Assembly: GCA_034658635.1 (NCBI GenBank)
Contig: JAYEFL010000286.1
Coordinates: 1,773-65,772, forward strand
DNA length: 64,000 nt
Source of the DNA: Bacteroidota bacterium
GTDB taxonomy: Bacteria; Bacteroidota; Bacteroidia; Bacteroidales; UBA12481
Reading direction: 5' to 3'
Part shown: positions 5,919 to 63,760 of the stretch, piece by piece
Numbering within the stretch: position 1 is the stretch's first letter
Layout of the letters: the number at the start of each line of letters is the position of its first letter
The notes under the pieces: model-generated
What the model was told of the DNA's origin: nothing
What the model saw: the letters and a program-made list of their open reading frames with translations, nothing else
Database searches by the model: none
Position numbers and translations under genes: made by a program

Positions 5919-5929
5919 GCCAAAAAATC

Positions 5930-6349: not shown

Positions 6350-6352
6350 GTA

Positions 6353-7799: not shown

Positions 7800-7800
7800 C

Positions 7801-8499
7801 ATGATCAAACACGTCAAATTTCTAAAACTTGCAGTTATTCTCCTGACTTTTTCCGGAATTTTTTCGCCGGAAGCACGCGCACAGGAAGAAGATATGAATA
7901 TCTGGACTCGCTTTGCCATTAAATATGACTTGTCGTCAAAAACCCGAATTGCTATCGAGGAAGAATTTCGTTTTTTTGAGAATGCTTCCAGATTGGAGCA
8001 AAACCACACCGAAATAGGTTTGTCACATGAGTTATCTCCGCGATGGGATGGCGGAATCTATTATCGATTCATCTATGAAACAGATGAAAAAAATTCTTAC
8101 TCACTTGGGCACCGGAGTTGGATTCAATTAGAATATCAACTTCTTGATACTGACTTCAAAGTTTCATTACGATCACGCCTCCAAACAACCTATGCAGATT
8201 ATTACACCAGAGAAAACGGGCAAATTCCTGAAGTATATAACAGGAACAAGCTTAATGTCTCTTACAAACCTAAAAATGCTTACTGGATTCCGCATGCAGG
8301 GATCGAATTATGGTACTACCTCAATCCAATGTCAGGTAATCAGTTTATTGATAAGTACAGGACAACTATCGGATTGGAATTTCGCCAGAGCAAGCATTTT
8401 AGATGGGAGGTGTTTTTTAGCTTTCAGCAGCAAATTCAGGTGACTGATCCAGGAACGACATACATTCTCGGACTTTCAGGAACTTACCTGATCAATTAA
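7801..8499 (+). CDS. DUF2490-like outer-membrane beta-barrel protein
   Basis: 232 aa with signal peptide ...SPEARAQ and an alternating amphipathic beta-strand pattern. It starts 1 nt after the DUF4956 stop. Confidence 0.6.
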   Translation: MIKHVKFLKLAVILLTFSGIFSPEARAQEEDMNIWTRFAIKYDLSSKTRIAIEEEFRFFENASRLEQNHTEIGLSHELSPRWDGGIYYRFIYETDEKNSYSLGHRSWIQLEYQLLDTDFKVSLRSRLQTTYADYYTRENGQIPEVYNRNKLNVSYKPKNAYWIPHAGIELWYYLNPMSGNQFIDKYRTTIGLEFRQSKHFRWEVFFSFQQQIQVTDPGTTYILGLSGTYLIN

Positions 8500-10464: not shown

Positions 10465-12018
<1,554 letters not shown>

Positions 12019-35479: not shown

Positions 35480-35480
35480 T

Positions 35481-48446: not shown

Positions 48447-48457
48447 TCCCAGAAATA

Positions 48458-49693
48458 ATGAAAACAATATACAGATCTATATTTATCCTCTTATTAGGAA
48501 TCGGATTACTTACCGTTCCAGCTTGCCAGAACGAATCAGAAAGCGATACTCAATATAAAGCACTGATAATCACAGGACAAAACAATCATTCCTGGGAAAC
48601 ATCAACTCCAATTCTTAAAGAGATTCTTGATAATTCAGAACTTTTTGCAACCAGCATTGCCCAGTCTCCTGCTAAGGGAGAAGACATGTCGAATTTCACC
48701 CCGATTTTCACCGATTACGATGTGGTAGTTCTCGATTATACCGGAGATTCCTGGCCTGAAGAAACACAGGAGGCTTTTTTAGCCTACGTCAAAGCTGGTG
48801 GTGGTGTAGTAGTTTATCATGCAGCGAATAATGCTTTCCCGGATTGGAAAGAATTCAATAAAGTAATCGGACTTGGTGGATGGGGTGGCCGGAATGAAAA
48901 GGATGGCCCTTATGTCAGATGGAAAGATGGAGAGATCGTAAGAGATTTGACTCCCGGACGTGGAGGTTCACATGGTCAGCAACATGCTTTTGTTGTCAAA
49001 ATACGAGAAACAGAGCATCCAATTACAAAAGGTTTACCTGAAACCTGGTTGCACGCTCAGGATGAATTATACTCTGAGCTAAGAGGTCCGGCTGAAAACC
49101 TGACTGTTTTGGCAACAGCATTTGCTGATACTGCTAAAGGGGGAACCGGCGAGAATGAACCCACCCTGATGACCATCCAGTATGGCCAGGGTCGGGTATT
49201 TCATACTACTCTGGGACATGTCATGGGAGACGGTCCTCAACCAGCAGTACAATGTGTCGGCTTTATTGTAACTCTTCAACGTGGAGCCGAATGGGCTGCC
49301 ACAGGTGAAGTTACCCAAGAGGTTCCGGTTGCCTTTCCAGGTCATAATAGTTTGAGCTCCTGGGATAAATTTCGCCCTTATACTATGGATGAACTACTTG
49401 AGTGTATGGAAGATTACATGCCTGGAGATAGTCGTGTTTGTTTACAAGACCTGAAAAATATGATCAGGCAAGCAAGTACAGACCTTGATAAACTCCAGGA
49501 TATTGAACTTTCATTGATAAAATTCCTGAAGGATAATGCAACTGATGATGCCAGGAATTTTGTAATGAGAGAACTCGGTCTGATTGGAACCGAAGCATCA
49601 TTACCAGTTCTCAAAAAACTGATGAAAGATGACGACACCAAAGAAATGGCACGTTATGCCACAGAACAAATTTCAAACGAATATACCAACTAA
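48458..49693 (+). CDS. ThuA-domain protein (trehalose-utilisation-like, class I glutamine amidotransferase fold) with C-terminal HEAT-like repeats; lipoprotein
   Basis: It has a lipobox (LTVPAC). The ThuA core runs ALIITGQNNHSWE...VVVYHAANNAF...HTTLGH. The C-terminal ~90 aa are helical repeats (LKFLKDNATDDARNFVMRELGLIGTEASLPVLKKLMKDDD). Confidence 0.8.
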   Translation: MKTIYRSIFILLLGIGLLTVPACQNESESDTQYKALIITGQNNHSWETSTPILKEILDNSELFATSIAQSPAKGEDMSNFTPIFTDYDVVVLDYTGDSWPEETQEAFLAYVKAGGGVVVYHAANNAFPDWKEFNKVIGLGGWGGRNEKDGPYVRWKDGEIVRDLTPGRGGSHGQQHAFVVKIRETEHPITKGLPETWLHAQDELYSELRGPAENLTVLATAFADTAKGGTGENEPTLMTIQYGQGRVFHTTLGHVMGDGPQPAVQCVGFIVTLQRGAEWAATGEVTQEVPVAFPGHNSLSSWDKFRPYTMDELLECMEDYMPGDSRVCLQDLKNMIRQASTDLDKLQDIELSLIKFLKDNATDDARNFVMRELGLIGTEASLPVLKKLMKDDDTKEMARYATEQISNEYTN

Positions 49694-49706
49694 TTATAAA
49701 GGACAA

Positions 49707-51023
49707 ATGTCAACAAGAAGAGATTTTGTAAAAACCGGTGCTACTATAGCTGCAGGAGTTTCTGCAGTATCATTAGTTCCGGGCGCAGTAAGTTGTGCTA
49801 ATCAGGCTAATAACAAACTTGTTGTTGGAGCAATCGGGATCAATGGAATGGGCTTTTCCGACCTGAGAGCTTTTTTAAGAGAAGAAAATGTTGAGTGTGC
49901 TGCAATATGTGATGTTGATCAGAATGTGCTCAAAAAAAGAATGCCACAGATCGAAGAAATGCAGGGATTTGCTCCGGAAACATATGGAGATTATCAGAAG
50001 CTGCTTGAAAGAAAAGATCTGGATGCAGTTATCATTGGTACTCCTGATCATTGGCATGCAAAAATCATGATTGATGCTGTTAAAGCCGGGAAGCATGTCT
50101 ATGTTGAAAAGCCAATGGCCAATTCTATCTATGAAGCATTTCAGATGGAAAAAGCGGCAAAAAAATACAAGCGGGTTGTGCAGTTAGGACAATGGCAAAG
50201 AAGTGATCCGCACTGGAATGATGTTTTTGACTACGTGCAGTCTGGTGTTTTAGGTGATATTCGCACCGTTAAAGTATGGTGCTATGAGTCCTGGCTAAGA
50301 CCTCCTGGTCCGGTTGCTGACGGACCTGTACCTGCAGGTGTTGACTATGACATGTGGTTAGGACCAGCACCTTTGAGGGATTTTAACAGAAACCGCTTCC
50401 ACTTTAATTTCCGTTGGTTCTGGGATTATGCCGGTGGATTAATGACAGACTGGGGTGTTCACCTCCTGGATATGGCCTTGGCCGGAATGAAAGCAGACCT
50501 CCCAAATTCAGCTATGAGTGCCGGGGGAAAAATGGCCTTTTTGGATAGTCCGATTGAAACTCCGGATACTCAACAAGTAATTTATGAATTTGATGAATTT
50601 AATGTGATATGGGATCACGCCATGGGTATTGGAAATGGCGACTGGAGAAGAGATCATGGATTATCCTTCATAGGCAACAACGGAACGCTGGTAGTAGATC
50701 GCGGTGGCTGGGAGGTATTTCCTGAAGGCTCAAAAGAGAAGCCCCTTGTTCAACCAGTATCAAGAATCAAAGGAACTGGTCAGGGCCTTACCCTGAATGT
50801 TCAGAATTTCATTGAGGGAATCAAAAATAAAGATAGAAATACCAAAGCCAACCCAACAATTGGTCGCGCTGTTGCCGGCATGGCTCATATGGGTAACATC
50901 GCCCTTAAGGTTGGAAACAAAGTGTATTGGGATCATGACAAAAAAGAATTCAAAGACAACCCAAAAGCCAATGAATTGATGGCTCCGGTTTATCGCGATC
51001 CATGGAAACTTCCAAAAGTGTAA
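49707..51023 (+). CDS. Gfo/Idh/MocA family oxidoreductase, Tat-exported (paralog 1 of a tandem pair)
   Basis: ATG 49707 gives MSTRRDFVKTGATIAAG. It carries GAIGINGMG, VYVEKPMANSIYEA, and FRWFWDYAGGLMTDWGVHLLDMA. Confidence 0.9.
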   Translation: MSTRRDFVKTGATIAAGVSAVSLVPGAVSCANQANNKLVVGAIGINGMGFSDLRAFLREENVECAAICDVDQNVLKKRMPQIEEMQGFAPETYGDYQKLLERKDLDAVIIGTPDHWHAKIMIDAVKAGKHVYVEKPMANSIYEAFQMEKAAKKYKRVVQLGQWQRSDPHWNDVFDYVQSGVLGDIRTVKVWCYESWLRPPGPVADGPVPAGVDYDMWLGPAPLRDFNRNRFHFNFRWFWDYAGGLMTDWGVHLLDMALAGMKADLPNSAMSAGGKMAFLDSPIETPDTQQVIYEFDEFNVIWDHAMGIGNGDWRRDHGLSFIGNNGTLVVDRGGWEVFPEGSKEKPLVQPVSRIKGTGQGLTLNVQNFIEGIKNKDRNTKANPTIGRAVAGMAHMGNIALKVGNKVYWDHDKKEFKDNPKANELMAPVYRDPWKLPKV

Positions 51024-51029
51024 AGAACT

Positions 51030-52364
51030 ATGACAGTTAACAGACGGAAATTTCTAAAAACCTCAATAACCATGGCTGGTGGAGTGGGAGTTTTATCTAC
51101 TCTGCCACTAAATTACTCCTGTAGCCGACCAGGAGCTAATGATATAATACGTGTTGGCTTGATCGGGTGTCGGAATATGGGGTTTTCTAACATTCGTCAG
51201 TTTATTGTTCAACCTGATGTTGAAGTGGTTGCCTTGTGCGATATTGATGAAAGCATCCTGAACCAAAGAGCTGCAGATCTTGAGAAATTCGCTTATGAAA
51301 AGGATGTTCCTGAGTTTAGAAAACCTGAACTATATAAGGATTTTCGCAAGGTGCTAGATAGAAAAGATGTGGATGCAGTAATCATAGCAACCCCTGATCA
51401 TTGGCATGCTTTGATGACTATTATGGCCTGCCAGGCAGGTAAAGATGTGTACGTTGAGAAACCCATGGCAAACTCAATCTTCGAGGCTGATCTTATGGCC
51501 AGAGCAGGAGATCGATACAACTCTGTCATACAGGTAGGCCAATGGCAAAGAAGCGGCCCCCACTGGCACGATATGATGGATTTCATCTCAAGCGGTCAAT
51601 TAGGCGAAATTGATCAAATTGATGTTTGGAGATTTGGAGGAAATGAGGTTCCGGTGAAACCTGACGGTCCGATTCCTGCAGGAGTAAACTACGACATGTG
51701 GTTAGGGCCTGCTCCATTGAGAAACTTCAATCCGAATCGTTTTCACTATAACTTCAGATGGTTCTGGGATTATGCCGGTGGCAAGATGACTGACTGGGGA
51801 GTTCATCTGCTTGACATGGCCATACAAGCTATGAATATCCATCATCCACGTACAATACAAGCAAGTGGAGGGAAATTATTCTTTCCTGATGATGCCATGG
51901 AAACGCCTGACACCCTCAAAGTTCAATATGATTTTAATAATCTTAAGGTAGTCTGGCAAAATGATTTCAGTCGACAAGAAAATCAATTTGGGCTTGGCCA
52001 TGGTCTGGCTTTTCATGCCGAAAACGGACTATTGATTGCGAGCAGAAACGGCTGGAAAGTAGAACCCAAAGTTAACAATGGTACACCATTAATGGAAGCT
52101 GTTGATCCCAAGCCATCAACCGGAAAAGATCTGAGCTTACATGTCAGAGATTTCCTTGATTCCATTAAATCCAGAAACCGATCAACAAAATGCTCTGCAG
52201 AAATTGGTCGTGATGTTGCCCGTGTTGCAAACATGGGGAATATCGCTTACCGAACAGGTGAAACCCTGCACTGGAATCCTGAGACTGAAAAATTCTCTGA
52301 AACAGCTGCCAACAAATTGCTTTGCCCAGAATACCGGAAACCATGGGAATTGCCAAAATTTTAA
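51030..52364 (+). CDS. Gfo/Idh/MocA family oxidoreductase, Tat-exported (paralog 2 of a tandem pair)
   Basis: It has a Tat signal (NRRKFLKTSITMAGG), GLIGCRNMG, VYVEKPMANSIFEA, and FRWFWDYAGGKMTDWGVHLLDMA. Confidence 0.9.
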   Translation: MTVNRRKFLKTSITMAGGVGVLSTLPLNYSCSRPGANDIIRVGLIGCRNMGFSNIRQFIVQPDVEVVALCDIDESILNQRAADLEKFAYEKDVPEFRKPELYKDFRKVLDRKDVDAVIIATPDHWHALMTIMACQAGKDVYVEKPMANSIFEADLMARAGDRYNSVIQVGQWQRSGPHWHDMMDFISSGQLGEIDQIDVWRFGGNEVPVKPDGPIPAGVNYDMWLGPAPLRNFNPNRFHYNFRWFWDYAGGKMTDWGVHLLDMAIQAMNIHHPRTIQASGGKLFFPDDAMETPDTLKVQYDFNNLKVVWQNDFSRQENQFGLGHGLAFHAENGLLIASRNGWKVEPKVNNGTPLMEAVDPKPSTGKDLSLHVRDFLDSIKSRNRSTKCSAEIGRDVARVANMGNIAYRTGETLHWNPETEKFSETAANKLLCPEYRKPWELPKF

Positions 52365-52477
52365 CCTGATAACACATATGAACCGAGCATGACAAAAGGA
52401 AATTATTTTATCACACACAAGGATGATTATTTTTGTTATGTGAGCTACATCCAACAAATAGAATTAAATATAAACGG

Positions 52478-53215
52478 ATGAAAACCCACGCTTTTATTGT
52501 CGCACTATTATTTTTTCTGCCATCAGTTTTACTTGCTCAGAAACCAAAGATGACTGAAGACTGGAGCAAGCAACCTCCAATCATTACTGCTGGCAAAAGA
52601 TCTAAACCTCCATCAGATGCCACTATCCTTTACCGTACCCGTAAAGATTTGAATAATTGGCAATCCGGAAGAAATGGAGAACCTGCCAAATGGAAGGCTA
52701 CACTATGCGGAATGACTGTTAACGGAACTGGTGGAATTGTTTCAAAACAGGCATTTGGAGATATCCAATTACATGTTGAATGGCGTTCTCCCCGTAAAGT
52801 CAACCCTGAAGCTGAGGGGCAGGGAAGGGGAAATTCTGGTATATATATTCAGGGGAAATACGAAGTCCAAATCCTTGATTCCTATGAAAATGAAACTTAC
52901 TATAATGGTCAGGCAGGATCTATTTACAAGCAATCTGCTCCCCTGGTAAACACAAGTCGAAAACCTGGAAAATGGCAGAGTTATGACATTGTTTTTCACG
53001 CCCCACGTTTCCATGCAGATGGAAGTCTAAAAAGTCCTGCCACTATAACCGTTTTTCATAATGGAGTCCTCATTCAGGATCACTATGTATTGAAGGGCGA
53101 AACCGTTTTTGGCGGCTTCCCAAAATACAGACCTCATCCTGAAAAACTCCCAATGATGTTGCAGGATCACGGAAATCCTGTTAAATACCGGAATATTTGG
53201 GTAAGGGAACTATAA
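52478..53215 (+). CDS. DUF1080 / 3-keto-disaccharide hydrolase family protein (secreted)
   Basis: ATG 52478 gives a signal peptide (MKTHAFIVALLFFLPSVLLAQ). It carries GNSGIYIQGKYEVQILDSYEN and a C-terminal VKYRNIWVREL. Confidence 0.85.
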   Translation: MKTHAFIVALLFFLPSVLLAQKPKMTEDWSKQPPIITAGKRSKPPSDATILYRTRKDLNNWQSGRNGEPAKWKATLCGMTVNGTGGIVSKQAFGDIQLHVEWRSPRKVNPEAEGQGRGNSGIYIQGKYEVQILDSYENETYYNGQAGSIYKQSAPLVNTSRKPGKWQSYDIVFHAPRFHADGSLKSPATITVFHNGVLIQDHYVLKGETVFGGFPKYRPHPEKLPMMLQDHGNPVKYRNIWVREL

Positions 53216-53223
53216 GCTCACCC

Positions 53224-53270
53224 CTTGCCCCGGATCGAGTCCGGGGCAGGCTCTCTCAAGGTGGAGAGGG
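53224..53270 (+). terminator. Two tandem GC-rich hairpins after the DUF1080 gene (putative terminator or REP-like element)
   Basis: TGCCCCGGA-tcgag-TCCGGGGCA forms a 9-bp perfect stem, extendable to 11 bp. It is followed by CTCTC-aaggtg-GAGAG. No T-tract is present. Confidence 0.5.
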
Positions 53271-53307
53271 AGGTAAATTACACGTTTAATTTGTAATACA
53301 AATCTCT

Positions 53308-54198
53308 ATGGAACGACGAAATTTTTTAAAAACCGCAGGTATTACCGGCGTTGGTCTGGCTGTTGCTCCAGGCTTGATTACCTCTTGCGAATCAGAGCCC
53401 TGGTTTCAGATTTCTTTGGCTCAATGGTCATTGCATCGTGAACTAAGATCAAAAGCCTTAAAGCACCTCAGCTTTCCATTGAAGGCTAAACAGTCGTTTG
53501 GGATTACAGCTGTAGAGTATGTCAGTACCTTCTTCGAGGGATGGGAAATTGATGAAAAATATGTGGCTGAACTCAAGAGAATCACCGATTATAATGGAAT
53601 TACTAATGTTCTGATTATGGTCGATGGAGAAGGTTCCCTCGGAGCAGCAGATCAAAAAGAACGGAGTGAGGCTGTGAAAAACCACCACAAATGGGTGGAG
53701 GTGGCAAAAACACTGGGATGTCATTCTATTCGAGTCAATGCCAGGGGAACAGGCTCAGCCGATGAATTGAAAAAAACCTCTGCAGACGGACTTCGCAGTT
53801 TATCTGAATACGCCAAGAATTTCGATATTGGTGTAATTGTCGAAAATCATGGTGGCCTCTCAAGTAACGGAGCCTGGCTGGCATCTGTGATGAAGGAAGT
53901 AAACATGGAAAACTGTGGAACCCTACCAGATTTTGGAAATTTCAAAATAAGCGCAGAAGAAGAATACGACCGCTACAAAGGAGTAAAAGAACTCATGCCA
54001 TACGCAAAGGGAGTAAGTGCCAAATCCCATGATTTTGATGCAGAAGGCTACGAGATCCATACCGATTATGACAAAATGATGAAAATTGTCAAAAAATCAG
54101 GATACAGGGGATATATTGGGATTGAGTATGAAGGGGGAGAATTTACTGAGGATGAGGGGATTATGCTTACTAAGAGGCTGTTGGAGAGGTATTTTTAG
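53308..54198 (+). CDS. Xylose-isomerase-like TIM-barrel protein (sugar phosphate isomerase/epimerase family), Tat-exported
   Basis: It has a Tat signal with a lipobox-like end (MERRNFLKTAGITGVGLAVAPGLITSC). TIM-barrel motifs are present: HSIRVNA, VIVENHGG, GYIGIEYEG. Confidence 0.85.
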   Translation: MERRNFLKTAGITGVGLAVAPGLITSCESEPWFQISLAQWSLHRELRSKALKHLSFPLKAKQSFGITAVEYVSTFFEGWEIDEKYVAELKRITDYNGITNVLIMVDGEGSLGAADQKERSEAVKNHHKWVEVAKTLGCHSIRVNARGTGSADELKKTSADGLRSLSEYAKNFDIGVIVENHGGLSSNGAWLASVMKEVNMENCGTLPDFGNFKISAEEEYDRYKGVKELMPYAKGVSAKSHDFDAEGYEIHTDYDKMMKIVKKSGYRGYIGIEYEGGEFTEDEGIMLTKRLLERYF

Positions 54199-54201
54199 TT
54201 G

Positions 54202-54257
54202 ATCGTTATTCATCTTTCGTTATTCGTCTTTCGTTATTCGTCATTCGTCTTTCGTTT
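54202..54257. repeat. Heptamer tandem repeat TTCGTNN, about 8 copies
   Basis: The units read atcgtta ttcatct ttcgtta ttcgtct ttcgtta ttcgtca ttcgtct ttcgttt. The same heptamers occur reverse-complemented at 1976-1997 (aaaacgaaagacgaaagacgaa). Confidence 0.85.
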
Positions 54258-54270
54258 TTAGTGCTTTTTA

Positions 54271-54340
54271 TCTGAATATATTGGGATTTGGAACATCTCG
54301 GATCGCAGAGACGGCAGTTTCAAATCCCAATATATTCAGA
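54271..54340. repeat. Perfect 20-bp inverted repeat with 30-nt spacer between convergent genes
   Basis: tctgaatatattgggatttg (54271-54290) is the exact reverse complement of caaatcccaatatattcaga (54321-54340). Confidence 0.9.
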
Positions 54341-54360
54341 CAAACTCTTATTACTTATTA

Positions 54361-55350
54361 CTACTCAAAAGCAGCATCAAAAGCAATATCAGAAGCCGGA
54401 AAGTCGACGTTACGAACGAATTCGCAGGCTTCAGCGGCACCGTGCTCACGGTCCATTCCGCTGTCTTCCCATTCAACCGATAATGGACCATTGTATTTGA
54501 TGCGGTTCAGGGCTCTGATAATCTCTTCAAAATCGATGTTTCCATGACCAAGACTCCGGAAATCCCAATATCTCCTGCGATCCCCAAAATCAAGATGACC
54601 GCCAAAAACACCAGCTTCTGTTGGGAATGGCGACCAGCCCACATCCTTCATGTGAACATGGAAAATCTTTTCGGCAAATTTATAGATGAACTCTACATAG
54701 TCTACTCCCTGATATCCTAAATGACTGGGGTCATAATTGAAGCCAAAAGCAGAATGATTATTTATGGCAGTTAATGCTCTTTCAGCAGTAGCTATATCAA
54801 ATGCTATTTCAGTAGGATGAACTTCAAGAGCAAATTTTATTCCCAAACTCTCATACTCATCCATTATCGGCTTGAATCTTCTTGCAAAATCTGCATAACC
54901 CTCTTCGATCATTTCAGGTGGAACAGGTGGAAATGAATAATTAAGGTGCCAGATAGAACTCCCGGTAAACCCATTAACTACATTCACTCCCAAGCGTTTT
55001 GCTGCTTCGGCAGTTTTAACCAATTCATCTGCAGCCCGCTTACTAATACCTTCAGCATCACCATCTTTCCATATGTAATCAGGCAGTATTGACTTGTGCC
55101 GGATATCAATAATATCACAAACAGCCTGTCCGACAAGATGAGAGGAAATAGCCCATGTATTTAATCCGTATTTCGAAAGAATCTCTCTCTTATTATCACA
55201 ATAAGCCTGATCGGCTTTATCTACTTCGAAATGATCACCCCAACAGGCAAGCTCAAGCCCGTCGTAGCCAAAGTCTCTGGCCTTCTCACAAATAGTTTGA
55301 AAGGATAAATCAGCCCATTGTCCGGTAAAAAGTGTAACTGGTCGTACCAT
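54361..55350 (-). CDS. Xylose-isomerase-like TIM-barrel protein (sugar phosphate isomerase/epimerase family), cytoplasmic
   Basis: 329 aa with no signal peptide. Motifs: [40 protein letters not shown]. Confidence 0.88.
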
Positions 55351-55463
55351 GATTGAATATTTTTGGTTTTACAGACCTATATCAGTCTGATAAGTCAAAA
55401 TTAAAAAAAACTGCTAATTTTATGCGTTATTCTATCAAAGTAGATTAATCTAAACCAATTATT

Positions 55464-56645
55464 ATGACCGAACAACAACACAATGCCAAAAGATTATTCC
55501 TGATGAGTTGCATAGCACTTGTCACTACTGCCATGACTTTCGCTATAAGGGCGAGTTTAGAAAACGTTTGGGGAGGCGAATTTAACCTCACAGCCACTCA
55601 AATGGCGATTGCAATTGGTACGGCTTTCTGGGGATTTACTCTTGCCCAGTTCATTGGAGGCCCCTTGGTAGATTTACTGGGAATGAAACGATTTATAAGA
55701 ATTGCATTCTTCATGCATGCCATTGGAATAGTGCTCACTATTTTTGCAGGTGGTTTCTGGATCCTGTTTATCGGAACTTTGTTTATAGGTATAGGAAATG
55801 GTTCTATTGAAGCCGGATGTAACCCCCTTGTAGCAACAATTTTTCCAGATGCAAAAACGAAAATGCTGAACCGTTTTCATATCTGGTTCCCAGGGGGTAT
55901 TGTAATTGGAGGTCTTGTTTCTTATCTTATTTTGGAGGTATTGGAATGGTCATGGCCAATTCTGGTAAGCACTCTTGTTATTCCAATGCTTGCTTATGGC
56001 GCTATTATGTGGGGACAAAAATTCCCAATCACAGAAAGGGTGAAAATGGGCGTATCCTACGGTGGCATGTGGAAAGCTATTTTTAAACCAGTATTCCTGA
56101 TAATGCTTTTTGCAATGCTTTTGAGTGCGGCAACAGAACTAACCACCGGACAACGAATTTCATCCCTTTTGACAGAAACAGGAACCGCACCCATCCTTGT
56201 TTTAGCTTTTATTAATGGTATTATGGCTGTTGGGCGAGCATTTGCAGGACCTGTTGTACACCGTATCAATGCTACAGGTATGCTAATGTTTTCCGCCATT
56301 GTCAGTATGATAGGACTTTTAATGCTTAGCTACTTTAGCGGGGCAGGATTAACCTACCTTTCTGCTGCTGTTTTTGCCATTGGTGTATGCTTTTTCTGGC
56401 CCACTATGCTGGGTTTTGTATCAGAAAAAATGCCGGAAACAGGGGCACTCGGACTATCAATTTTCGGGGGGGCAGGAATGCTTTCAAACGTCCTCTTCTT
56501 GTTCATTTCCGGTAAATTTACGGATGCAGGAGCAAGCGGACAGGAAATCCTGAGATTAACTGCTATTCTGCCAGCAGTACTAATAATAATTTTCGCAGTT
56601 GTGTTTATTACTATGCGAAAGCAGGAAAATAAAGGTATTGCATAA
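55464..56645 (+). CDS. MFS transporter (sugar-type)
   Basis: 393 aa with about 12 TM helices. The organisation of the N-terminal half is typical of MFS. Confidence 0.8.
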   Translation: MTEQQHNAKRLFLMSCIALVTTAMTFAIRASLENVWGGEFNLTATQMAIAIGTAFWGFTLAQFIGGPLVDLLGMKRFIRIAFFMHAIGIVLTIFAGGFWILFIGTLFIGIGNGSIEAGCNPLVATIFPDAKTKMLNRFHIWFPGGIVIGGLVSYLILEVLEWSWPILVSTLVIPMLAYGAIMWGQKFPITERVKMGVSYGGMWKAIFKPVFLIMLFAMLLSAATELTTGQRISSLLTETGTAPILVLAFINGIMAVGRAFAGPVVHRINATGMLMFSAIVSMIGLLMLSYFSGAGLTYLSAAVFAIGVCFFWPTMLGFVSEKMPETGALGLSIFGGAGMLSNVLFLFISGKFTDAGASGQEILRLTAILPAVLIIIFAVVFITMRKQENKGIA

Positions 56646-56658
56646 AAAGAAATTAATC

Positions 56659-57789
56659 ATGAAAAGACTAATATGGGGCATGATAGGAGGAGGCAAAGGA
56701 GCCTTTATCGGTGGAGCCCATCGCATCGCTGCCAAAATCGCCAACCGATACGAATTCGTTGGAGGGGTTTTTGACCTTGACTATGATTTATCAAAGGAGT
56801 TTGCCCTGGAAGAAGGCCTGGATCTCAAACGTGTTTATCCCGATATCAACACTTTCATTGAAGGGGAACTGGGAATGCCAGCCGGAGAAAGAATTCAGGT
56901 GGTCTCAATTGTTACTCCAAATTTTCTGCATTACGAGCATGCCAGAAAACTTCTGCTAAATGGCTTTCACGTAATCTGTGAGAAACCTGTAACAATGACT
57001 TCAGCAGAAGCTATGGATCTCCAGGAAATCGTTCTGGAGAAAGGCCTGGTCTTTGCCCTCACTCATACCTACACCGGATATCCCATGGTGAGGGAAATGA
57101 AGCGTAGAATTGAAGCTGGTGATATAGGTGATATTCAGCGCGTTGAAGCAAAATACCTTCAAGGATGGATCAATCCTATTATCCATGGAGGAGAAGCTAA
57201 ATTGGCGACATGGCGGCTAGACCCGAAAATCTCCGGCATAAGTTCATGCCTGGGGGATATTGGAGTACACGCTTTCAACTTGATTGAATATACTACTGGC
57301 CTGGAAATTCAGGCAGTGCTATCTGCACTTAACAACCTGAAGGAAGACAATCCTTTGGACCTGGATGGAAATGTTCTGCTTCGATTCAAAGAAAACCTTA
57401 CTGGCGTAATCCTGGTATCCCAAATCGCTACCGGTGAAGAAAATAATATCCGGATATCAGTATACGGATCCAAGGGCGGTTTTCATTGGGAACAGGAGAA
57501 CCCAAATGAACTGAAAATGTTTCACGAAGGTGCACCCTATGAGATTATCAAACCAGGTTATGGATACCTGAGTGACTTTGCTCAGGAAAGTCATGTACTG
57601 CCTCCTGGTCATCCGGAAGGAATATATGAAGCTTTTGGGAACCTCTACAAGGGCGCTGCTAAAGCAATTCAAGGAGAACCCATCGTTCAAGGACAATTCC
57701 CTGGTATTGAGGAGGGTGTGAGAGGGATGCGCTTTATTGAATCAGCAGTACAATCCAATAAAGACGGAAACATCTGGATCGCGATATAA
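56659..57789 (+). CDS. Gfo/Idh/MocA family oxidoreductase, cytoplasmic
   Basis: ATG 56659 gives MKRLIWGMIGGGKGAFIGGAHR, a Rossmann fold with no Tat signal. The VICEKPVT motif is present. Confidence 0.9.
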   Translation: MKRLIWGMIGGGKGAFIGGAHRIAAKIANRYEFVGGVFDLDYDLSKEFALEEGLDLKRVYPDINTFIEGELGMPAGERIQVVSIVTPNFLHYEHARKLLLNGFHVICEKPVTMTSAEAMDLQEIVLEKGLVFALTHTYTGYPMVREMKRRIEAGDIGDIQRVEAKYLQGWINPIIHGGEAKLATWRLDPKISGISSCLGDIGVHAFNLIEYTTGLEIQAVLSALNNLKEDNPLDLDGNVLLRFKENLTGVILVSQIATGEENNIRISVYGSKGGFHWEQENPNELKMFHEGAPYEIIKPGYGYLSDFAQESHVLPPGHPEGIYEAFGNLYKGAAKAIQGEPIVQGQFPGIEEGVRGMRFIESAVQSNKDGNIWIAI

Positions 57790-57836: not shown

Positions 57837-58754
57837 ATGGAATTAAGTATCGTCATACCACTATACAATGAAGCTGATGGTGTTGAAGAACTGCTCAGCC
57901 GAACTGTCAGTGCCCTGATCCAGACCCATAAGGAATATGAAATTATTGTGGTTGACGATGGCAGTACAGATCAAACACTGCATTTGCTACTTGAACTGAG
58001 AGAAAAGAATCCACTCATCAAGGTGCTTCAACTCTCCAGAAACTTCGGACACCAGGCTGCATACACAGCTGGCATGCATCAAGCAAAAGGAAAGTTTATT
58101 GTATTAATTGATGGCGACTTGCAGGATCCACCTGAGCTAATTGTTGATATGTATAACAAAATATCAGGCCGGGATCTGGATGTTGTGTATGGAAAACGAA
58201 TCAATTCTCCACAGTTGAGTCGCCGACCTATACTTGCAAGGTATTTTCACAAATTGTTTAAGAGATTATCCGGATTTCCCGATATGGATAATGTGGGAAA
58301 TTTCAGTATCATGAACAGACGGGCACTTGATGCTATTCTTTCATTTAGTGAAAACGTACGTTATCTGCCAGGATTAAGACGACTTATTGGCTTTCAGCAA
58401 GGATTCATCGAATATGAGAGATTACCACGCTTTTCAGGTAAATCAAAAATGCGAATTTCTCAATTACTCTCGCTGAGCTCAGATGCAATTTTCTCTTTTT
58501 CAAAAGTCCCGATAAAAATCTGCCTGTATATGGGCATCATCGGGGTTGTAGTTTTTTTCCTTGCAGGAGTTTACACATTGATTGCTAAACTTGCCGGCTT
58601 CGCTTTGCTTGGTTGGTCATCAACTGTTCTTGCAATTTATTTCCTGGGTTCTATCCAATTAACCTTTATGGGTGTTATTGGTGAATACGTGTACCGTATC
58701 TATAAAGAAAGCCAGAAACGTCCCCTCTATTTCGTCAGAGAATTTCATCAGTAA
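57837..58754 (+). CDS. Family 2 glycosyltransferase, polyprenyl-phosphate sugar synthase type (ArnC/GtrB/DPM1-like)
   Basis: 305 aa with LSIVIPLYNE, VVDDGSTD, DGDLQDPPE, and two C-terminal TM helices as in GtrB/ArnC. Confidence 0.9.
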   Translation: MELSIVIPLYNEADGVEELLSRTVSALIQTHKEYEIIVVDDGSTDQTLHLLLELREKNPLIKVLQLSRNFGHQAAYTAGMHQAKGKFIVLIDGDLQDPPELIVDMYNKISGRDLDVVYGKRINSPQLSRRPILARYFHKLFKRLSGFPDMDNVGNFSIMNRRALDAILSFSENVRYLPGLRRLIGFQQGFIEYERLPRFSGKSKMRISQLLSLSSDAIFSFSKVPIKICLYMGIIGVVVFFLAGVYTLIAKLAGFALLGWSSTVLAIYFLGSIQLTFMGVIGEYVYRIYKESQKRPLYFVREFHQ

Positions 58755-58756
58755 TC

Positions 58757-60709
58757 ATGACGAGGTTAAAGTCAATATATGGCATGTTTACTGTCAGGGC
58801 TATATATTTGCTAACTATTGGTCTGATGCTATTTCTTCTGCTTTTTCTGAGTCTCAATGCCGGAATTTCCGGCGATGAACCAGTACACTATCAGCACTCA
58901 GAATATGTAAGCAATTATTTCTCTTCAGGAAAAACTGACCTGGCTGCAATTAATACACCTGATACCCATCTGAAATACTATGGTCAGGTTTTCGACAATA
59001 TTTCATATTCCTTAAACTCACTGCTAAACACTTCTTCGCCCTATACGGTGAGGCATATTATGAATGCTTTAACCGGATTTTTACTGATTCTCTTTTCAAG
59101 CCTCATTGCTGTGGCTCTGAGGGGATATAGAACCGGAATATTGACGGCATTGCTGCTATTTCTTTCTCCCAGAATCCTGGGACATTCCCTGAACAACCTC
59201 AAAGACATCCCATTTGCCCTGGGATATATTATGACTATTTGGGGACTGGTGAAAAGCATGCAACTTTTTCCAAAAATCAGACTTGCTCCAATGCTGGCAA
59301 TAGCTTTTGGATTTGGAATTGCATTTGGAACCAGGGCTGGAGGATTAATTCTGATTCCAATTGTTCTATTGTTTTCCTTCCTGAACTGGCTAAGTGTCAC
59401 CAAGCTAAAAGAGTGGACACTGTTTAACTCATGGAGGCCGGGTATTAAATTATTTGGAGCTCTTATGTTGGCTATTGTCGTCGGATATACTCTGGGAGTA
59501 CTATACTGGCCCTATGCACTTCTAGACCCCTTGAGAAATCCGCTTGAAGCCCTGAAAATGATGACTCACTACGAAGTCAGTATTAGGCAGGTTTTTAATG
59601 GCGAGTGGGTGTGGTCTGAAAAACTACCCTGGTATTATGGAGGTAAATGGATTCTAATTTCCAGTCCTGTCGCTATCCTGGCGGGATTTGTAATACATTT
59701 TATATTCGTCAAAGATACCTCAAAACAGATATCCTGGCCGGTCTTGAGCTTGCTATACTTCAGTTCTTTGTTTCCTTTGTTTTGGACAGTCATCAAAGAT
59801 TCAAATTTATATGGGGGATGGAGACATTTACTCTTTATTTATCCGGTGATCTGCATAGTATCGGGGCTTGGCTGGGTATGGCTTTACAAACGCTTTTCTT
59901 CAATTCTAGGGAAAATTTTTCTGACTGCTCTAATAATGGTCGGTCTGACCGGTCCGGCTATCCACATAATCAAAAATCATCCTGTTGAATATGTATATTT
60001 TAATAAATTGGCTGGTGGAATTACAAAAGCTAATGGCAAATATGAGACGGATTATTATTTCCACGGTGTAAAAAAAGCCGTTTCCTGGCTGGAAAACGAG
60101 TTGAATGCCAGGGCATGTTTTGATTCAGTAATCGTCGCATCCAATTTTCCAATTGGAGACTACTACCGCGATAATCCTCCTCCTTTCAGCAACATATACA
60201 TGAATTATTACATACGGGGAAAGTTCAATTGGGATTACGGGATTTTTTCCAGCACTTACATTGATCCGGCTCAGCTTAGAAACAACAACTGGCCTCCGGA
60301 AAATACTATATTTGAAGTTTGTGTTGACCAGGTACCCGTTTGTGTGGTGATTGAACGAAGAAACAAATACGATCTGGAAGGACTCAGTCAGTACAGGCAA
60401 AGTCGGTTTTCTGAAGCTGATAGTCTTTTTTCTTTAAGCCTGGAAACTGACCCTGACAATGAAACCGCCCTGTTGTATTTAGCCTGGACAAGAAAACACA
60501 TGGGCTTACTCAATTCATCTGACTCTCTTGCGGATATTATCCTCAGGCGTCATCCACTATCAGACAATGCCCTGGATCTGAAAGCGCGAAATGCAATTTC
60601 TGCCGGAAACTATAATCAGGCTGAAAAAATACTCAACCAGCTTTTGATTCAGAATTATAAATTTCCTCCAGCCCATAAACAGAAGGAAATTCTAGAGAAA
60701 AAAAAGTAA
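58757..60709 (+). CDS. GT-C fold membrane glycosyltransferase (ArnT/PMT-like) with C-terminal TPR repeats
   Basis: 650 aa with about 11 TM helices. The first periplasmic loop carries an acidic DE motif (ISGDEPVHY). The C-terminal ~120 aa form TPR-like helices (GLSQYRQSRFSEADSLFSLSLETDPDNETALLYLAW...). It starts 2 nt after the GT2 gene. Confidence 0.65.
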   Translation: MTRLKSIYGMFTVRAIYLLTIGLMLFLLLFLSLNAGISGDEPVHYQHSEYVSNYFSSGKTDLAAINTPDTHLKYYGQVFDNISYSLNSLLNTSSPYTVRHIMNALTGFLLILFSSLIAVALRGYRTGILTALLLFLSPRILGHSLNNLKDIPFALGYIMTIWGLVKSMQLFPKIRLAPMLAIAFGFGIAFGTRAGGLILIPIVLLFSFLNWLSVTKLKEWTLFNSWRPGIKLFGALMLAIVVGYTLGVLYWPYALLDPLRNPLEALKMMTHYEVSIRQVFNGEWVWSEKLPWYYGGKWILISSPVAILAGFVIHFIFVKDTSKQISWPVLSLLYFSSLFPLFWTVIKDSNLYGGWRHLLFIYPVICIVSGLGWVWLYKRFSSILGKIFLTALIMVGLTGPAIHIIKNHPVEYVYFNKLAGGITKANGKYETDYYFHGVKKAVSWLENELNARACFDSVIVASNFPIGDYYRDNPPPFSNIYMNYYIRGKFNWDYGIFSSTYIDPAQLRNNNWPPENTIFEVCVDQVPVCVVIERRNKYDLEGLSQYRQSRFSEADSLFSLSLETDPDNETALLYLAWTRKHMGLLNSSDSLADIILRRHPLSDNALDLKARNAISAGNYNQAEKILNQLLIQNYKFPPAHKQKEILEKKK

Positions 60710-60745: not shown

Positions 60746-62311
60746 ATGGGTTTGCTCAGATGGATATCAAGGTCAGGGAGAAGAATTAAAAACTCCTGGA
60801 AATTCAAGGGAAATCATTTTCGTTTTGTTTTCTTTACCGGCCTTTTCACCGGAATTATTCTGCTACTATTTAGTTATCAGGCCCTTGAATACACCAGCAC
60901 TGATGCTTCATGCGAGGCTTGTCATGTGCACCCCCACTCTACAAGTAGTTGGAAATTATCTTCACATTATGGGAATACTTCAGGAGTCGTGGTGCACTGT
61001 GTTGATTGCCATTTACCACCTGAAGGAATCCGTCATTATACCGAAAAAGCAAGAACAGGTATCAAAGATATTTGGGGATACGTTTTTAAAGATATTTCTG
61101 AAATAGACTGGGAGGCTAAATCTACAATAGAACATGCCAACAAGTACACTTACAACGAATCATGCCAGCATTGTCATCAGAATCTGTTTCAATTAGATCT
61201 GAGTCAAAAAGGAATCAATGCCCATCGTGAGTTTGAGCAAGTTCCTGAGGGCAAAACCTGTGTTCAATGCCACCTTGATGTTGGGCATTATGACCCCGAC
61301 GCTATTCATGCAAAAAATCTCTCATTTGCAGATGAGGTGTATGAGTCTGAAAAAGAAGTGTATTCAAAACCAGCCATTGTTAATGAATTCAAAAATTTTA
61401 CTGAATTTATTCCTAAATCCTCTGTCTCATTCGAAATGACAGCTATACCTGAGGGATTTTTCTCCTTCGGTAGTCCGGATGATGAAAAACTGAGAAATCC
61501 GGATGAAGGACCCCAAAGGCGAATCAAAATCAGCAAATTTTTTATGGGGCAGGTTGAGGTTAGCTGGAGTGAGTATATGGCTTTCTTCTCTCAAACTGGG
61601 GCAGAAGGAAAATCTGAAACATCTACATCAGGAAAAAACGGTAAAACAGATGCCATAACCGGAGCAACTCCTCCCTGGGGGGCACCCGATCAGGGATGGG
61701 GAAAAGGCACACGTCCGGCAATCACCATGACCCACCATGCGGCAACAGTATATTGTCAGTGGTTAACGCAGATAACCGGCAAGAAATATCGACTTCCTAC
61801 AGAAGCAGAATGGGAATATGCTGCAAGGGCCGGATCAGAAGGACCATACTTTTTTGAAGGGAATGCAAAGGATTATACCAGCGATGGATTTTTCAAAAAG
61901 CTATTTGGGGCAGATACAAACGTGATTAACAGCTATGTGATATACCGAGAAAACTCTCCAAATAAAACTCAGGAGCCAATTGCATCGCTACCAAATGCAT
62001 TCGGACTAATAAACATGCTGGGGAATGTGTCAGAATTTTGCTCTGACTGGTATAGTGCTGAAATATTCAACAACTATCCAACAGGAAATAAGGTGGCAGT
62101 GAATCCAAAAGGCCCGGCTACCGGTGAAGAACACGTTATCAGAGGAGGCTCGTTCCTGAGCGATGCCCGGGATGTAAGAATCACTTCAAGAGATTTCACT
62201 CAGTATAGTAATTGGGTAGTGACAGATCCGCAAATTCCTAAGAGTATCTGGTGGTATTCAGACTCGAGGCATGTTGGGTTTAGGGTGGTTTGTGAATGGG
62301 ATGGAGAATGA
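60746..62311 (+). CDS. Fusion protein: membrane-anchored tetrahaem NapC/NirT-type cytochrome c (N-terminal) and FGE/SUMF1-fold domain (C-terminal)
   Basis: It has a TM helix (FVFFTGLFTGIILLLFSY) and four CxxCH motifs (CEACH, CVDCH, CQHCH, CVQCH). FGE-sulfatase-fold hallmarks follow: LPTEAEWEYAARAG, GNVSEFCSDWY, IRGGSF. Confidence 0.85.
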   Translation: MGLLRWISRSGRRIKNSWKFKGNHFRFVFFTGLFTGIILLLFSYQALEYTSTDASCEACHVHPHSTSSWKLSSHYGNTSGVVVHCVDCHLPPEGIRHYTEKARTGIKDIWGYVFKDISEIDWEAKSTIEHANKYTYNESCQHCHQNLFQLDLSQKGINAHREFEQVPEGKTCVQCHLDVGHYDPDAIHAKNLSFADEVYESEKEVYSKPAIVNEFKNFTEFIPKSSVSFEMTAIPEGFFSFGSPDDEKLRNPDEGPQRRIKISKFFMGQVEVSWSEYMAFFSQTGAEGKSETSTSGKNGKTDAITGATPPWGAPDQGWGKGTRPAITMTHHAATVYCQWLTQITGKKYRLPTEAEWEYAARAGSEGPYFFEGNAKDYTSDGFFKKLFGADTNVINSYVIYRENSPNKTQEPIASLPNAFGLINMLGNVSEFCSDWYSAEIFNNYPTGNKVAVNPKGPATGEEHVIRGGSFLSDARDVRITSRDFTQYSNWVVTDPQIPKSIWWYSDSRHVGFRVVCEWDGE

Positions 62312-62407: not shown

Positions 62408-63760
62408 ATGGATAGGGAAAAATCAGTAAGTCGTCGGAAATTTTTAGGACAGGCAGGAGCTATTGGGGCTGTTGGTACCTTGGGCATTAGTTCGGTTTTA
62501 TCGGCTTGTTCATCAGATAAGAAGGGGAAAAACATTCCGGCTACGGATAAATTGGACCAGGCTCCCGATGGGAAGGTTTTGAAGGCGGGATTGGTTGGAT
62601 GTGGTAACCGTGGAACTGGTGCAGCATTTAATTTTCTGGATGCTGGTCCTAATCTTGAATTGATTGCTTTAGCTGATGTTTTTGATGATCAATTACAACT
62701 TTGCAGGCAAAAACTGAAAAAGCAAAAGAATGTTGATATTCCTGATAATAAGTGCTTCACAGGATTTGATGGCTTCAAAAGACTGCTGGAAACTGATATT
62801 GACATTATTCTTTTAGCTACCCCGCCCCACTTTCGTCCGGAGCATTTGGAAGCTGCCGTAAGAGCGAAAAAGCATGTATTCATGGAAAAACCAGCAGCAG
62901 TTGATCCGGTTGGTATACGTTCTATCATCGGTTCTGCCAAAAAGGCTGAAGCAATTGGCTTAAGTATTGTTGGAGGTACCCAGCGACGACATGAAAGAAA
63001 TTACCTTGAAACCTATCGTCAGGTTCAGATGGGAGGTATCGGAGAACCGGTTTCAGCAAATGCCTACTGGTTGCAAAACCACGTCTGGTACCGGAGTCGT
63101 CAGAAGGAATGGACCGACATGGAATATATGGTCAGAAACTGGAATAATTTCCGCTGGTTATGTGGTGATCACTTCCTCGATACTCATGTGCACAATATTG
63201 ATATCATCAACTGGTTCACAGGCAAACAACCCATTTCTGCAATTGGAGGAGGTGCCAGACACCGCCGCTTAACTGGTGATCAGTGGGATTTCTTCAGCGT
63301 AGATTTCTATTTTGGAGAGGGTTTGCATTCACACTCTATGTCAAGACAAATCGATAATTGCGCCAATGCAACAGCCGAACACCTGATGGGGACAGAAGGC
63401 TATACGAACTGTAAGGATACCATATTTTATCCCGATGGAACCATTAAGTGGCAGTATGAATACCCAATAGATGCAAACGGAAATCCAACCAAAACAGTAA
63501 AGGTTTCTCCATACGTTCAGGAGCACATTGACCTGGTGGCATCTATCCGTAATCATGAGCCAATTAACGAAGCAGAACAGCTTGCCCTTTCAACCCTTAC
63601 AGCAATTATGGGTCGTGAAGCTGCCTATACCGGCAAGTTGATAACCTGGGAGCAAATCAATAAGTCTACCATGAGAATGGGACCAACTGAGTATCTTATG
63701 GGCCCGGTTGATATGAAAATTGAAACTCCTGTTCCGGGTACTCCACACGGCGGAGCATAA
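62408..63760 (+). CDS. Gfo/Idh/MocA family oxidoreductase, Tat-exported
   Basis: It has a Tat signal with a lipobox-like end (SRRKFLGQAGAIGAVGTLGISSVLSAC), the Rossmann loop GLVGCGNRG, and VFMEKPAA. Confidence 0.9.
   Translation: MDREKSVSRRKFLGQAGAIGAVGTLGISSVLSACSSDKKGKNIPATDKLDQAPDGKVLKAGLVGCGNRGTGAAFNFLDAGPNLELIALADVFDDQLQLCRQKLKKQKNVDIPDNKCFTGFDGFKRLLETDIDIILLATPPHFRPEHLEAAVRAKKHVFMEKPAAVDPVGIRSIIGSAKKAEAIGLSIVGGTQRRHERNYLETYRQVQMGGIGEPVSANAYWLQNHVWYRSRQKEWTDMEYMVRNWNNFRWLCGDHFLDTHVHNIDIINWFTGKQPISAIGGGARHRRLTGDQWDFFSVDFYFGEGLHSHSMSRQIDNCANATAEHLMGTEGYTNCKDTIFYPDGTIKWQYEYPIDANGNPTKTVKVSPYVQEHIDLVASIRNHEPINEAEQLALSTLTAIMGREAAYTGKLITWEQINKSTMRMGPTEYLMGPVDMKIETPVPGTPHGGA

Follow-up and report, generated by a model that had tools for sequence, protein, structure and literature searches.

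A NapC/NirT cytochrome fused to an FGE-like domain and paired with a Gfo/Idh/MocA dehydrogenase: a candidate electron outlet for periplasmic sugar oxidation in Bacteroidota

The fusion gene and its domains

The stretch of DNA analysed here, called the window, comprises 64,000 nucleotides of contig JAYEFL010000286.1 from a Bacteroidota bacterium of the order Bacteroidales. Near its end lies a gene for a 521-amino-acid protein in which a transmembrane (TM) anchor and a tetrahaem cytochrome domain of the NapC/NirT type are joined to a C-terminal domain with the fold of formylglycine-generating enzyme (FGE). It is followed by a gene for a dehydrogenase of the Gfo/Idh/MocA family (Gfo), exported by twin-arginine translocation (Tat). 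The features of the two genes are as follows.

60746..62311, + strand: whole fusion open reading frame (ORF), 521 aa plus stop, with TM anchor, NapC/NirT tetrahaem domain, linker and FGE-like domain (uninterrupted frame, Pfam, homologues)
60818..60874, + strand: single N-terminal TM helix, residues 25-43 (hydropathy scan; helix 23-50 in the AlphaFold2 model)
60824..61300, + strand: NapC/NirT tetrahaem domain (Cytochrom_NNT, PF03264), residues 27-185 (Pfam E 7.5e-30, 104.4 bits against a cutoff of 24.1)
60911..60925, + strand: haem motif 1, CEACH, residues 56-60, followed by an invariant H62
60998..61012, + strand: haem motif 2, CVDCH, residues 85-89, invariant in homologues
61046..61069, + strand: KARTGIKD, residues 101-108, candidate quinol site (K101 and D108 align to K82 and D89 of NrfH)
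61163..61177, + strand: haem motif 3, CQHCH, residues 140-144, invariant in homologues
61259..61273, + strand: haem motif 4, CVQCH, residues 172-176, invariant in homologues
61301..61384, + strand: inter-domain linker, residues 186-213 (pLDDT below 50 for residues 187-200; mature free-standing relatives start at about 214)
61385..62308, + strand: PvdO-like FGE-fold domain, residues 214-521, without the Cu-binding Cys of FGE (Pfam, Foldseek, alignment to FGE)
62213..62284, + strand: subfamily signature W490-x3-D494-P-Q-x-P-K-S-x-W-W...R513, in general form W-x3-DPQxP(K/Q)SxW(W/Y) (at least 95% conserved in 38 relatives)
62408..63760, + strand: partner gene, Tat-exported lipoprotein of the Gfo/Idh/MocA family, 450 aa (Pfam GFO_IDH_MocA; 96 nt downstream of the fusion)

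An earlier note on this DNA, made from the letters alone, had described a single uninterrupted ORF with the two domains, and a Pfam search confirmed both Cytochrom_NNT and FGE-sulfatase above their cutoffs. Homologues were searched for in a collection of 5.8 billion proteins and the best 120 listed were examined. These are 54-93% identical to the fusion, about 500-523 aa long and all 120 carry both Pfam domains; exactly four CxxCH motifs are found in 119 of them, the exception being a 440-aa fragment. Because both domains recur across the best homologues listed, the fusion is no product of chance or of a frameshift. Among species-level genomes the full fusion is found in metagenome-assembled genomes (MAGs) of Bacteroidales and other Bacteroidia (Draconibacterium, Tannerella, Cryptobacteroides, Rikenella, Porphyromonadaceae and Ancylomarina) and, beyond the Bacteroidia, in KSB1 and in one Acidobacteriota MAG. 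A search against representative sequences was dominated by giant proteins with multiple FGE repeats, the FGE superfamily being vast and the fused family amounting to a few clusters at 50% identity. In one locus (L085) two tandem fusion paralogues, at 5344-6876 and 7001-8539, stand ahead of a single Gfo partner.

The annotations of the homologues in their source databases are generic: "SUMF1/EgtB/PvdO family nonheme iron enzyme", "sulfatase modifying factor 1", "cytochrome c nitrite reductase small subunit" or "hypothetical protein". An exact-sequence look-up of the 521-aa protein returned no record. Among the NCBIfam equivalogs none covers the fusion, and the partial matches (NrfH, TorC and NapC for the first part, PvdO, GldK, SenA and EgtB for the second) all score well below their cutoffs, so that no curated family claims the protein. 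The open-access literature gave no publication on the NapC/NirT-FGE architecture or on the combination of an FGE-like protein with Gfo, and the view that the architecture has no characterised member was thus upheld for these two sources. The fusion is abundant and conserved; what is new in it, compared with other NapC/NirT modules, is the domain it is joined to and the enzyme it is paired with.

A Kyte-Doolittle scan gave one hydrophobic segment in the whole protein, at residues 25-43 behind a basic N-terminus, close to the helix at about 25-45 noted before. With a basic N-terminus and a single TM helix, an N-in topology is expected, and everything behind the helix would then lie in the periplasm, as it does in NapC and NrfH; the periplasmic position of the FGE-like domain, also part of the earlier description, is supported to the extent that topology can be read across from that family. 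In an AlphaFold2 model built from a 117-sequence alignment of fusion homologues (mean pLDDT 81.8, pTM 0.63), a long helix at the N-terminus is followed by a helical haem domain; confidence is low in the linker (residues 187-200), and the C-terminal domain is predicted well.

In the same alignment the eight haem Cys and the four haem His are invariant, as are K101 and D108. The best PDB sequence match of the N-terminal 200 aa is NrfH of Desulfovibrio (2j7a), and the phmmer alignment sets K101 and D108 at K82 and D89, which we take from NrfH structures to be menaquinol-site residues. The proposed link to the quinone pool therefore gains from two residues that are both invariant and aligned to those of NrfH. 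By its profile match, anchor, four haem motifs and Lys/Asp site the protein is assigned to the NapC/NirT superfamily, whose members usually act as quinol dehydrogenases. It is neither NrfH, NapC nor TorC: the equivalog scores fail (76 bits against 134 for the NrfH model TIGR03153; a torC match over residues 29-194 that is also below cutoff), haem 1 has the form CxxCHxH (CEACHVH) and the neighbouring gene is a Gfo gene instead of nrfA.

For the second domain, Pfam FGE-sulfatase matches residues 230-483 with an E-value of 2.7e-39 and 135.8 bits against a cutoff of 23.3, and phmmer against the PDB gave a match to FGE with an E-value of about 1e-22. The top structure in a Foldseek search of the PDB was PvdO (5hha, TM-score 0.77 normalised to the target), followed by Cu-dependent FGEs and then by T. 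denticola variable protein 1, CalU17, ToxD, PorK and EgtB. The PDB alignment to PvdO ends at residue 447, ahead of the subfamily signature, and the PvdO equivalog NF051459, although the best NCBIfam match of FGE type, reaches 100 bits against a cutoff of 500. In a HMMER alignment S472 (GGSFLS) corresponds to Cys336 of human FGE (GGSYM-C), and gapless counting onward from S472 puts V477 at Cys341. The Cu(I)-binding cysteine pair is therefore absent, as had been claimed, and across the subfamily the two columns hold D or S and L or V. The domain shares the fold of FGE, yet by these residues the fusion is not a genuine FGE.

Other families of the same fold fit no better. For EgtB, OvoA and SenA, no DinB-type Pfam match was found in the fusion, its N-terminus is a cytochrome and the scores lie far under the cutoffs. 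For GldK/PorK and GldJ the score is 95 bits against 350, the anchor is a TM helix and not a lipobox, and no gld genes stand beside the fusion in the window. In another locus (L084, 2580-3926) a GldK/PorK-type FGE-fold gene, located after gldM and gldN, lies 3 kb upstream of a fusion gene. Two functionally different FGE-fold proteins are there found side by side, and a generic FGE annotation would confuse them.

Pairing with a Gfo/Idh/MocA dehydrogenase

The partner protein has a lipobox behind its Tat signal (SRRKFL...LSAC; TIGR01409 scores above cutoff), together with a Rossmann motif GCGNRGTG and an EKP motif. Its best family matches are iolG-like and below cutoff, its best PDB matches are inositol dehydrogenases, and it is only remotely related to the BT_2158_fam glycoside 3-dehydrogenases (E 2e-6). 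Gfo/Idh/MocA enzymes of the Tat-exported type cross the membrane folded and with NAD(P) bound.

Tabulation of neighbouring genes gave a conserved Gfo/Idh/MocA partner downstream of the fusion. When the ORFs of 14 genome loci and the window were clustered, the next gene was a Gfo/Idh/MocA gene of the GFO_dn type, encoding about 450 aa, in 13 of the 15 fusion loci; of the other two, L012 has fragmented Gfo ORFs just downstream and L007 stops at a contig edge. In all, a Gfo gene comes next in 14 of the 15 loci. The same order was found from called genes and precomputed Pfam matches in L081-L083, L084, L085 and L086. The intergenic gaps between the fusion or FGE-like gene and Gfo are often 4-13 nt. 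A Tat motif and a lipobox are present in all 13 Gfo partners of the NapC-fused lineage (the L001-L016 set; in the window the signal is encoded at 62408-62520). A reciprocal search with the Gfo protein, limited to loci with at least 1650 nt upstream of the Gfo gene, placed a NapC/NirT-FGE gene directly upstream in 32 of 47 metagenomic loci. In six other loci the Gfo partner is followed by a TIM-barrel gene.

The FGE-like domain of the fusion belongs to a subfamily that also occurs without the NapC/NirT module. Its signature, for which conservation was determined in the fused and free-standing relatives together, occupies the position of the catalytic Cys loop of FGE. A Gfo neighbour was found for 38 of 49 FGE-like ORFs with the signature and for 3 of 21 without it (odds ratio 20.7, Fisher p 1.7e-6). 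Across six phyla the subfamily is paired with the same Gfo dehydrogenase in three forms. The first is free-standing and found mainly in aerobic Bacteroidota and in Planctomycetota. The second is fused to the monohaem cytochrome domain PSCyt1 and found in Verrucomicrobiota and Acidobacteriota. The third is the NapC/NirT fusion of Bacteroidales, KSB1 and others, within the Bacteroidia in anaerobic or facultative members.

The free-standing relatives are 280-370 aa long, have a Sec signal peptide, are 30-41% identical to residues ~205-515 of the fusion and are encoded directly upstream of the same type of Gfo. Within the Bacteroidota they were found in the classes Flavobacteriia, Sphingobacteriia, Chitinophagia and Cytophagia (Eudoraea, the Flavobacteriaceae isolate CP2B, Sphingobacterium, Pedobacter, Chitinophagaceae, Cytophagales and Saprospiraceae), and outside them in Planctomycetota, Acidobacteriota and Gemmatimonadota. 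Because the mature proteins start at the equivalent of residue ~214 of the fusion, the NapC/NirT module in effect stands in for the signal peptide. The Gfo partners of these proteins have Tat signals that, judged by eye, appear to end in Ala-rich sites of the AxA type.

In Verrucomicrobiota and Bryobacteraceae one or two copies of PSCyt1 are fused to the FGE-like domain, and several of these genes (L038, L039, L035, L051 and L055) lie beside a Gfo gene. Five Verrucomicrobiota PSCyt1-FGE-like genes with DPQxPKSxW (L018, L022, L023, L030 and L048) lack a Gfo gene within two ORFs. What stays constant in the pairing with Gfo is the FGE-like domain and not the cytochrome. Divergence of the FGE-like sequence and of Gfo from the pair in the window is correlated (Pearson r 0.94 for 68 pairs, uncorrected for phylogeny), which fits a co-inherited unit.

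Direction of electron flow and proposed function

It is proposed, with about half of the overall confidence placed in this reading, that the fusion and Gfo together make up a two-component periplasmic sugar dehydrogenase, in which the fusion is the subunit through which electrons leave for quinone. The proposal was reached because the partner domain of a Tat-exported Gfo is covalently joined to a tetrahaem cytochrome with a quinone site. The FGE-like domain would be a dedicated partner or docking subunit of Gfo, whose substrate, a periplasmic sugar, glycoside or cyclitol, would be oxidised at a hydroxyl. Reducing equivalents would pass from the bound NAD(P)H at or through the FGE-like domain to the four haems and on to menaquinone, the NapC/NirT module running in the quinone-reducing direction as in cytochrome cM552 of nitrifiers. 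With quinone as acceptor, an NAD-linked sugar oxidation that is otherwise unfavourable would be drawn forward and would feed anaerobic respiration. The observations on which the proposal is built are the architecture, the conserved haem and quinol-site residues, the pairing of the genes in several phyla and the existence of other cytochrome fusions. A physical complex, the direction of the electrons, the type of substrate and the conversion of a hydride into single electrons are inferred.

Periplasmic enzymes of the Gfo type hold NAD(P) tightly and without exchange, and the route by which it is re-oxidised is an open problem, for which Liu et al. propose a second, unidentified sugar as hydride acceptor (PMC8121099). 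Cytochromes have been suggested as one route of re-oxidation (bioRxiv 10.1101/2024.03.25.586180). The distribution over lineages agrees with a route to menaquinone in that the NapC/NirT form occurs in anaerobic or facultative organisms and the free-standing form mostly in aerobic ones.

Several observations weigh against the proposal. The fusion/Gfo pair has no flavin or other evident converter between two-electron and one-electron transfer, and for the transfer of a hydride from NAD(P)H to a c-type haem there is, to our knowledge, no standard precedent. Quinol oxidation is also the usual activity among the NapC/NirT proteins that have been characterised. The pairing is incomplete in both directions: no FGE-like gene was found within 3.5 kb of 15 of the 47 Gfo homologues (mostly ~50-52% identical) or of the Gfo gene in L103, and 11 of the 49 signature-bearing FGE-like genes have no Gfo neighbour. 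The partnership is therefore strong and not obligate. A conserved cytochrome gene was sought near the free-standing FGE-like/Gfo pairs and none was found. Conserved His, Cys and Met ligands were sought in the 38 relatives of the FGE-like subfamily, which have no conserved His and retain only C337 (in 33 of 38) and core Met residues. With no conserved His and one largely conserved Cys, the subfamily has no recognisable metal site. Finally, the related BT and AL Gfo enzymes can recycle NAD with 3-keto-glucose and then need no external acceptor (bioRxiv 10.1101/2024.03.25.586180).

Some of these points lead to a view in which the FGE-like domain takes no part in redox chemistry. It may be merely a docking or substrate-binding module. 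Taken further, it would be a non-redox accessory that binds substrate in the manner of C-type lectins or assists assembly or maturation of Gfo, as suggested for NirV, with the cytochrome serving as membrane anchor and carrying electrons for some other partner. The apparent lack of a metal site in the subfamily and of cytochrome genes near the free-standing versions would fit this, the conserved Trp, Asp, Arg and Gln of the signature resemble carbohydrate-binding sites, and structural FGE-fold proteins that are not enzymes exist (PorK/GldK). Two independent fusions to c-type cytochromes, NapC/NirT and PSCyt1, are on the other hand hard to explain for a non-redox protein, and the accessory role is considered very improbable.

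The direction of the electrons separates the proposed route to quinone from the model of the earlier note, in which menaquinol would feed the four haems and through them an FGE-like domain that modifies a periplasmic substrate, reductively or oxidatively. That model draws on the usual role of NapC/NirT proteins as quinol dehydrogenases, on the conserved quinol-site residues and on the redox catalysis that the FGE fold supports in FGE and EgtB. Its architecture and its link to the quinone pool stand. A self-contained, quinol-fed catalytic end-point is not supported as it was stated: the Cu cysteines are missing, Pfam finds no DinB-type iron domain, and the subfamily conserves no His and among its Cys only C337, which leaves no recognisable metal site. 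The model also overlooks the conserved pair with Gfo and the occurrence of the same domain fused to PSCyt1 or free-standing without a cytochrome. Judged from standard potentials, reduction of NAD+ or of keto-sugars by menaquinol would be uphill, and for this reason the direction from sugar to quinone is argued here. Context and thermodynamics favour electrons leaving a sugar dehydrogenase for quinone, and a quinol-fed modification enzyme appears improbable.

A third view takes its lead from PvdO. The FGE-like domain could itself be a periplasmic dehydrogenase of the PvdO type that delivers electrons through the fused haems to quinone, with Gfo catalysing a neighbouring step; conceivable substrates are enediols or keto-sugars formed by Gfo and dihydro-aromatic compounds. 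PvdO is both the top structural match and the best NCBIfam match of FGE type, and cytochromes are fused to the FGE-like protein and never to Gfo. Genetically, a two-electron oxidation in the periplasm depends on PvdO, yet the purified protein is inactive and has no detectable cofactor, and it was suggested to need "specific electron transport systems" (PMC6206403). The missing metal ligands of the subfamily, the score far below the PvdO cutoff and an alignment to PvdO that stops short of the signature argue against a PvdO-type dehydrogenase, which is regarded as unlikely.

The PvdO likeness can also be combined with the proposed electron exit from Gfo. Tentatively, and with clearly less confidence than the proposal as such, the Gfo and FGE-like pair is seen as a respiratory 'nicotinoprotein' dehydrogenase of a class not recognised before, with a cofactor-poor PvdO-like fold as electron-exit subunit. 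The FGE fold would take up reducing equivalents from the permanently bound NAD(P)H of Gfo and hand them to a c-type haem. In aerobic organisms the free-standing forms would deliver to a soluble cytochrome c or to O2, and the fusion would deliver directly to menaquinone.

Surrounding genes and comparison with known systems

The region upstream of the fusion contains the following features.

47133..57789, strand unspecified: 3-keto-glycoside-type cluster (Pfam and NCBIfam matches)
57837..60709, + strand: GT2 and TM/TPR genes on the strand of the fusion, possibly forming an operon with it (Pfam, hydropathy)
57837..58754, + strand: GT2 glycosyltransferase with two C-terminal TM helices in a GtrB/ArnC-like layout; its stop overlaps the TM/TPR gene
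58757..60709, + strand: TM/TPR gene adjoining the fusion on its upstream side; the 650-aa product has nine hydrophobic segments and TPR repeats at its C-terminus

The cluster comprises a BT_2158-like Gfo with a ThuA-like gene, two further Tat-exported Gfo paralogues, a DUF1080 3-keto-disaccharide hydrolase, two xylose-isomerase-like TIM barrels, an MFS transporter and a cytoplasmic Gfo. This repertoire matches the 3-keto-glycoside pathway of B. thetaiotaomicron (PMC8121099) and that of bioRxiv 10.1101/2024.03.25.586180. The B. thetaiotaomicron gene BT2160 was considered as a cytochrome/FGE gene of the 3-keto-disaccharide operon and dropped, as it encodes a SusR-type regulator (PMC8121099). At 47133-48446 (+ strand) lies the Tat-type Gfo that is a remote relative of BT_2158, followed at 48458-49693 (+ strand) by the ThuA-like gene, whose product has a C-terminal HEAT repeat. 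The two form a ThuAB-like pair (47133-49693) and are the second case in the window of a periplasmic Gfo with a non-Rossmann accessory subunit. A Gfo and ThuA pair also comes after the fusion/Gfo pair in L001, L004, L006 and L085; in L085 the genes beyond the Gfo partner (Gfo with ThuA, cytoplasmic Gfo, MFS transporter and TIM barrel) are the gene set of the window.

A scan of the + strand found no terminator-like sites in the gaps between GT2, TM/TPR and fusion genes. The promoter and terminator scan as a whole was at background level, Bacteroidota promoters being outside its scope. The GT2 gene and a TM/TPR gene of 650-700 aa also flank the fusion/Gfo pair in L001, L002, L081-L083 and L084, and in L097 a GT2 gene comes after Gfo. 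The TM/TPR protein was considered as a GT-C/GT39 glycosyltransferase, which was not confirmed: Pfam, NCBIfam and the PDB gave TPR matches only.

These neighbours raise the further alternative that the pair acts within a periplasmic route of glycoconjugate modification, in which GT2 and the TM/TPR protein would install a lipid- or protein-linked sugar whose hydroxyl is then oxidised, with electrons going to quinone. Besides the loci just listed, GT2 and GT39 genes are found beside the AL 3-keto-glycoside cluster (bioRxiv 10.1101/2024.03.25.586180). The two genes are missing from most loci with the pair, however, sequence searches place the TM/TPR protein in no glycosyltransferase family and the remainder of the cluster in the window is catabolic, so that such a route is given a very slim chance.

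Elsewhere in the window an 806-aa ORF (33269-35689, - strand) joins a class-V aminotransferase, similar to NifS and selenocysteine lyase, to AIRS and AIRS_C domains similar to those of the selenophosphate synthetase SelD. Two different genes of the ATP-synthase alpha/beta family (10465-11973 and 21758-23335, both - strand) lie about 10 kb apart, one with a V/A-type C-terminal domain and the other with an F-type alpha C-terminal domain, which suggests that the window holds two rotary ATPase operons.

The 3-keto-glycoside routes of Bacteroidota, which act on disaccharides, glucosinolates and thioglycosides, are centred on periplasmic Gfo enzymes whose NAD(P) is bound permanently. A conserved partner tied to a quinone-linked tetrahaem cytochrome is a testable candidate for the missing electron outlet of these enzymes, and if the proposed function is true anaerobic Bacteroidia would respire directly on the oxidation of periplasmic sugars. 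The pairing would also give a first context for a large, phylum-spanning FGE-like subfamily whose members now carry misleading annotations (sulfatase-modifying factor, non-haem iron enzyme). The need for PvdO in pyoverdine maturation, so far unexplained, finds a parallel here. Should the nicotinoprotein interpretation hold, it would explain both the mechanism of PvdO and the re-oxidation of periplasmic Gfo-type glycoside dehydrogenases in anaerobes. The fusion makes these two questions, how Gfo is re-oxidised and how PvdO-type proteins act, testable, and overturns no paradigm.

Compared with known systems, the fusion is most similar in its first part to NrfH, NapC and CymA, with which it shares the N-terminal TM anchor, four CxxCH motifs within ~160 aa and Lys and Asp at the quinol-site positions of NrfH. 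It differs from them in its 300-aa C-terminal FGE fold and in equivalog scores far below cutoff, at haem 1 it has CxxCHxH where NrfH has CxxCHxM, and it is found with a Gfo/Idh/MocA dehydrogenase instead of a nitrite, nitrate or trimethylamine N-oxide (TMAO) reductase. Cytochrome cM552 (CycB) of ammonia oxidisers is a NapC/NirT tetrahaem protein thought to reduce quinone with electrons from a periplasmic oxidation; unlike the fusion it has no FGE-like domain, and its donor is HAO/c554. The nearest architectural analogue is TorC, in which the NapC/NirT module likewise has a C-terminal extension for handling the enzyme that it serves in the periplasm, the extra domain being a monohaem cytochrome in TorC and a haem-less FGE fold in the fusion.

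Among proteins related to the second part, PvdO is the best structural match and, like the FGE-like domain, a periplasmic FGE fold without the catalytic cysteines, but it is soluble, unfused and found in the context of PvdP and PvdM, and its alignment leaves out the DPQxPKSxW region of the fusion. FGE/SUMF1 shares the fold with its RLPTEAEWEYAARGG, GNVxE and GGS motifs and differs in that the fusion has S472 and V477 in place of the Cu(I) cysteines and no sulfatase context. The BT2158-type Gfo, ThuAB and LacABC systems resemble the partner as Tat-exported Gfo/Idh/MocA enzymes that act on periplasmic sugars, and the window holds DUF1080, TIM-barrel and ThuA-like genes of the corresponding kinds, whereas none of these systems has been described with an FGE-like or NapC/NirT subunit. 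In NirV-NirK, too, a gene for an FGE-fold protein adjoins that of a periplasmic redox enzyme; there the enzyme is a different one and the FGE-fold protein is not fused to a cytochrome, as it is in the pair described here.

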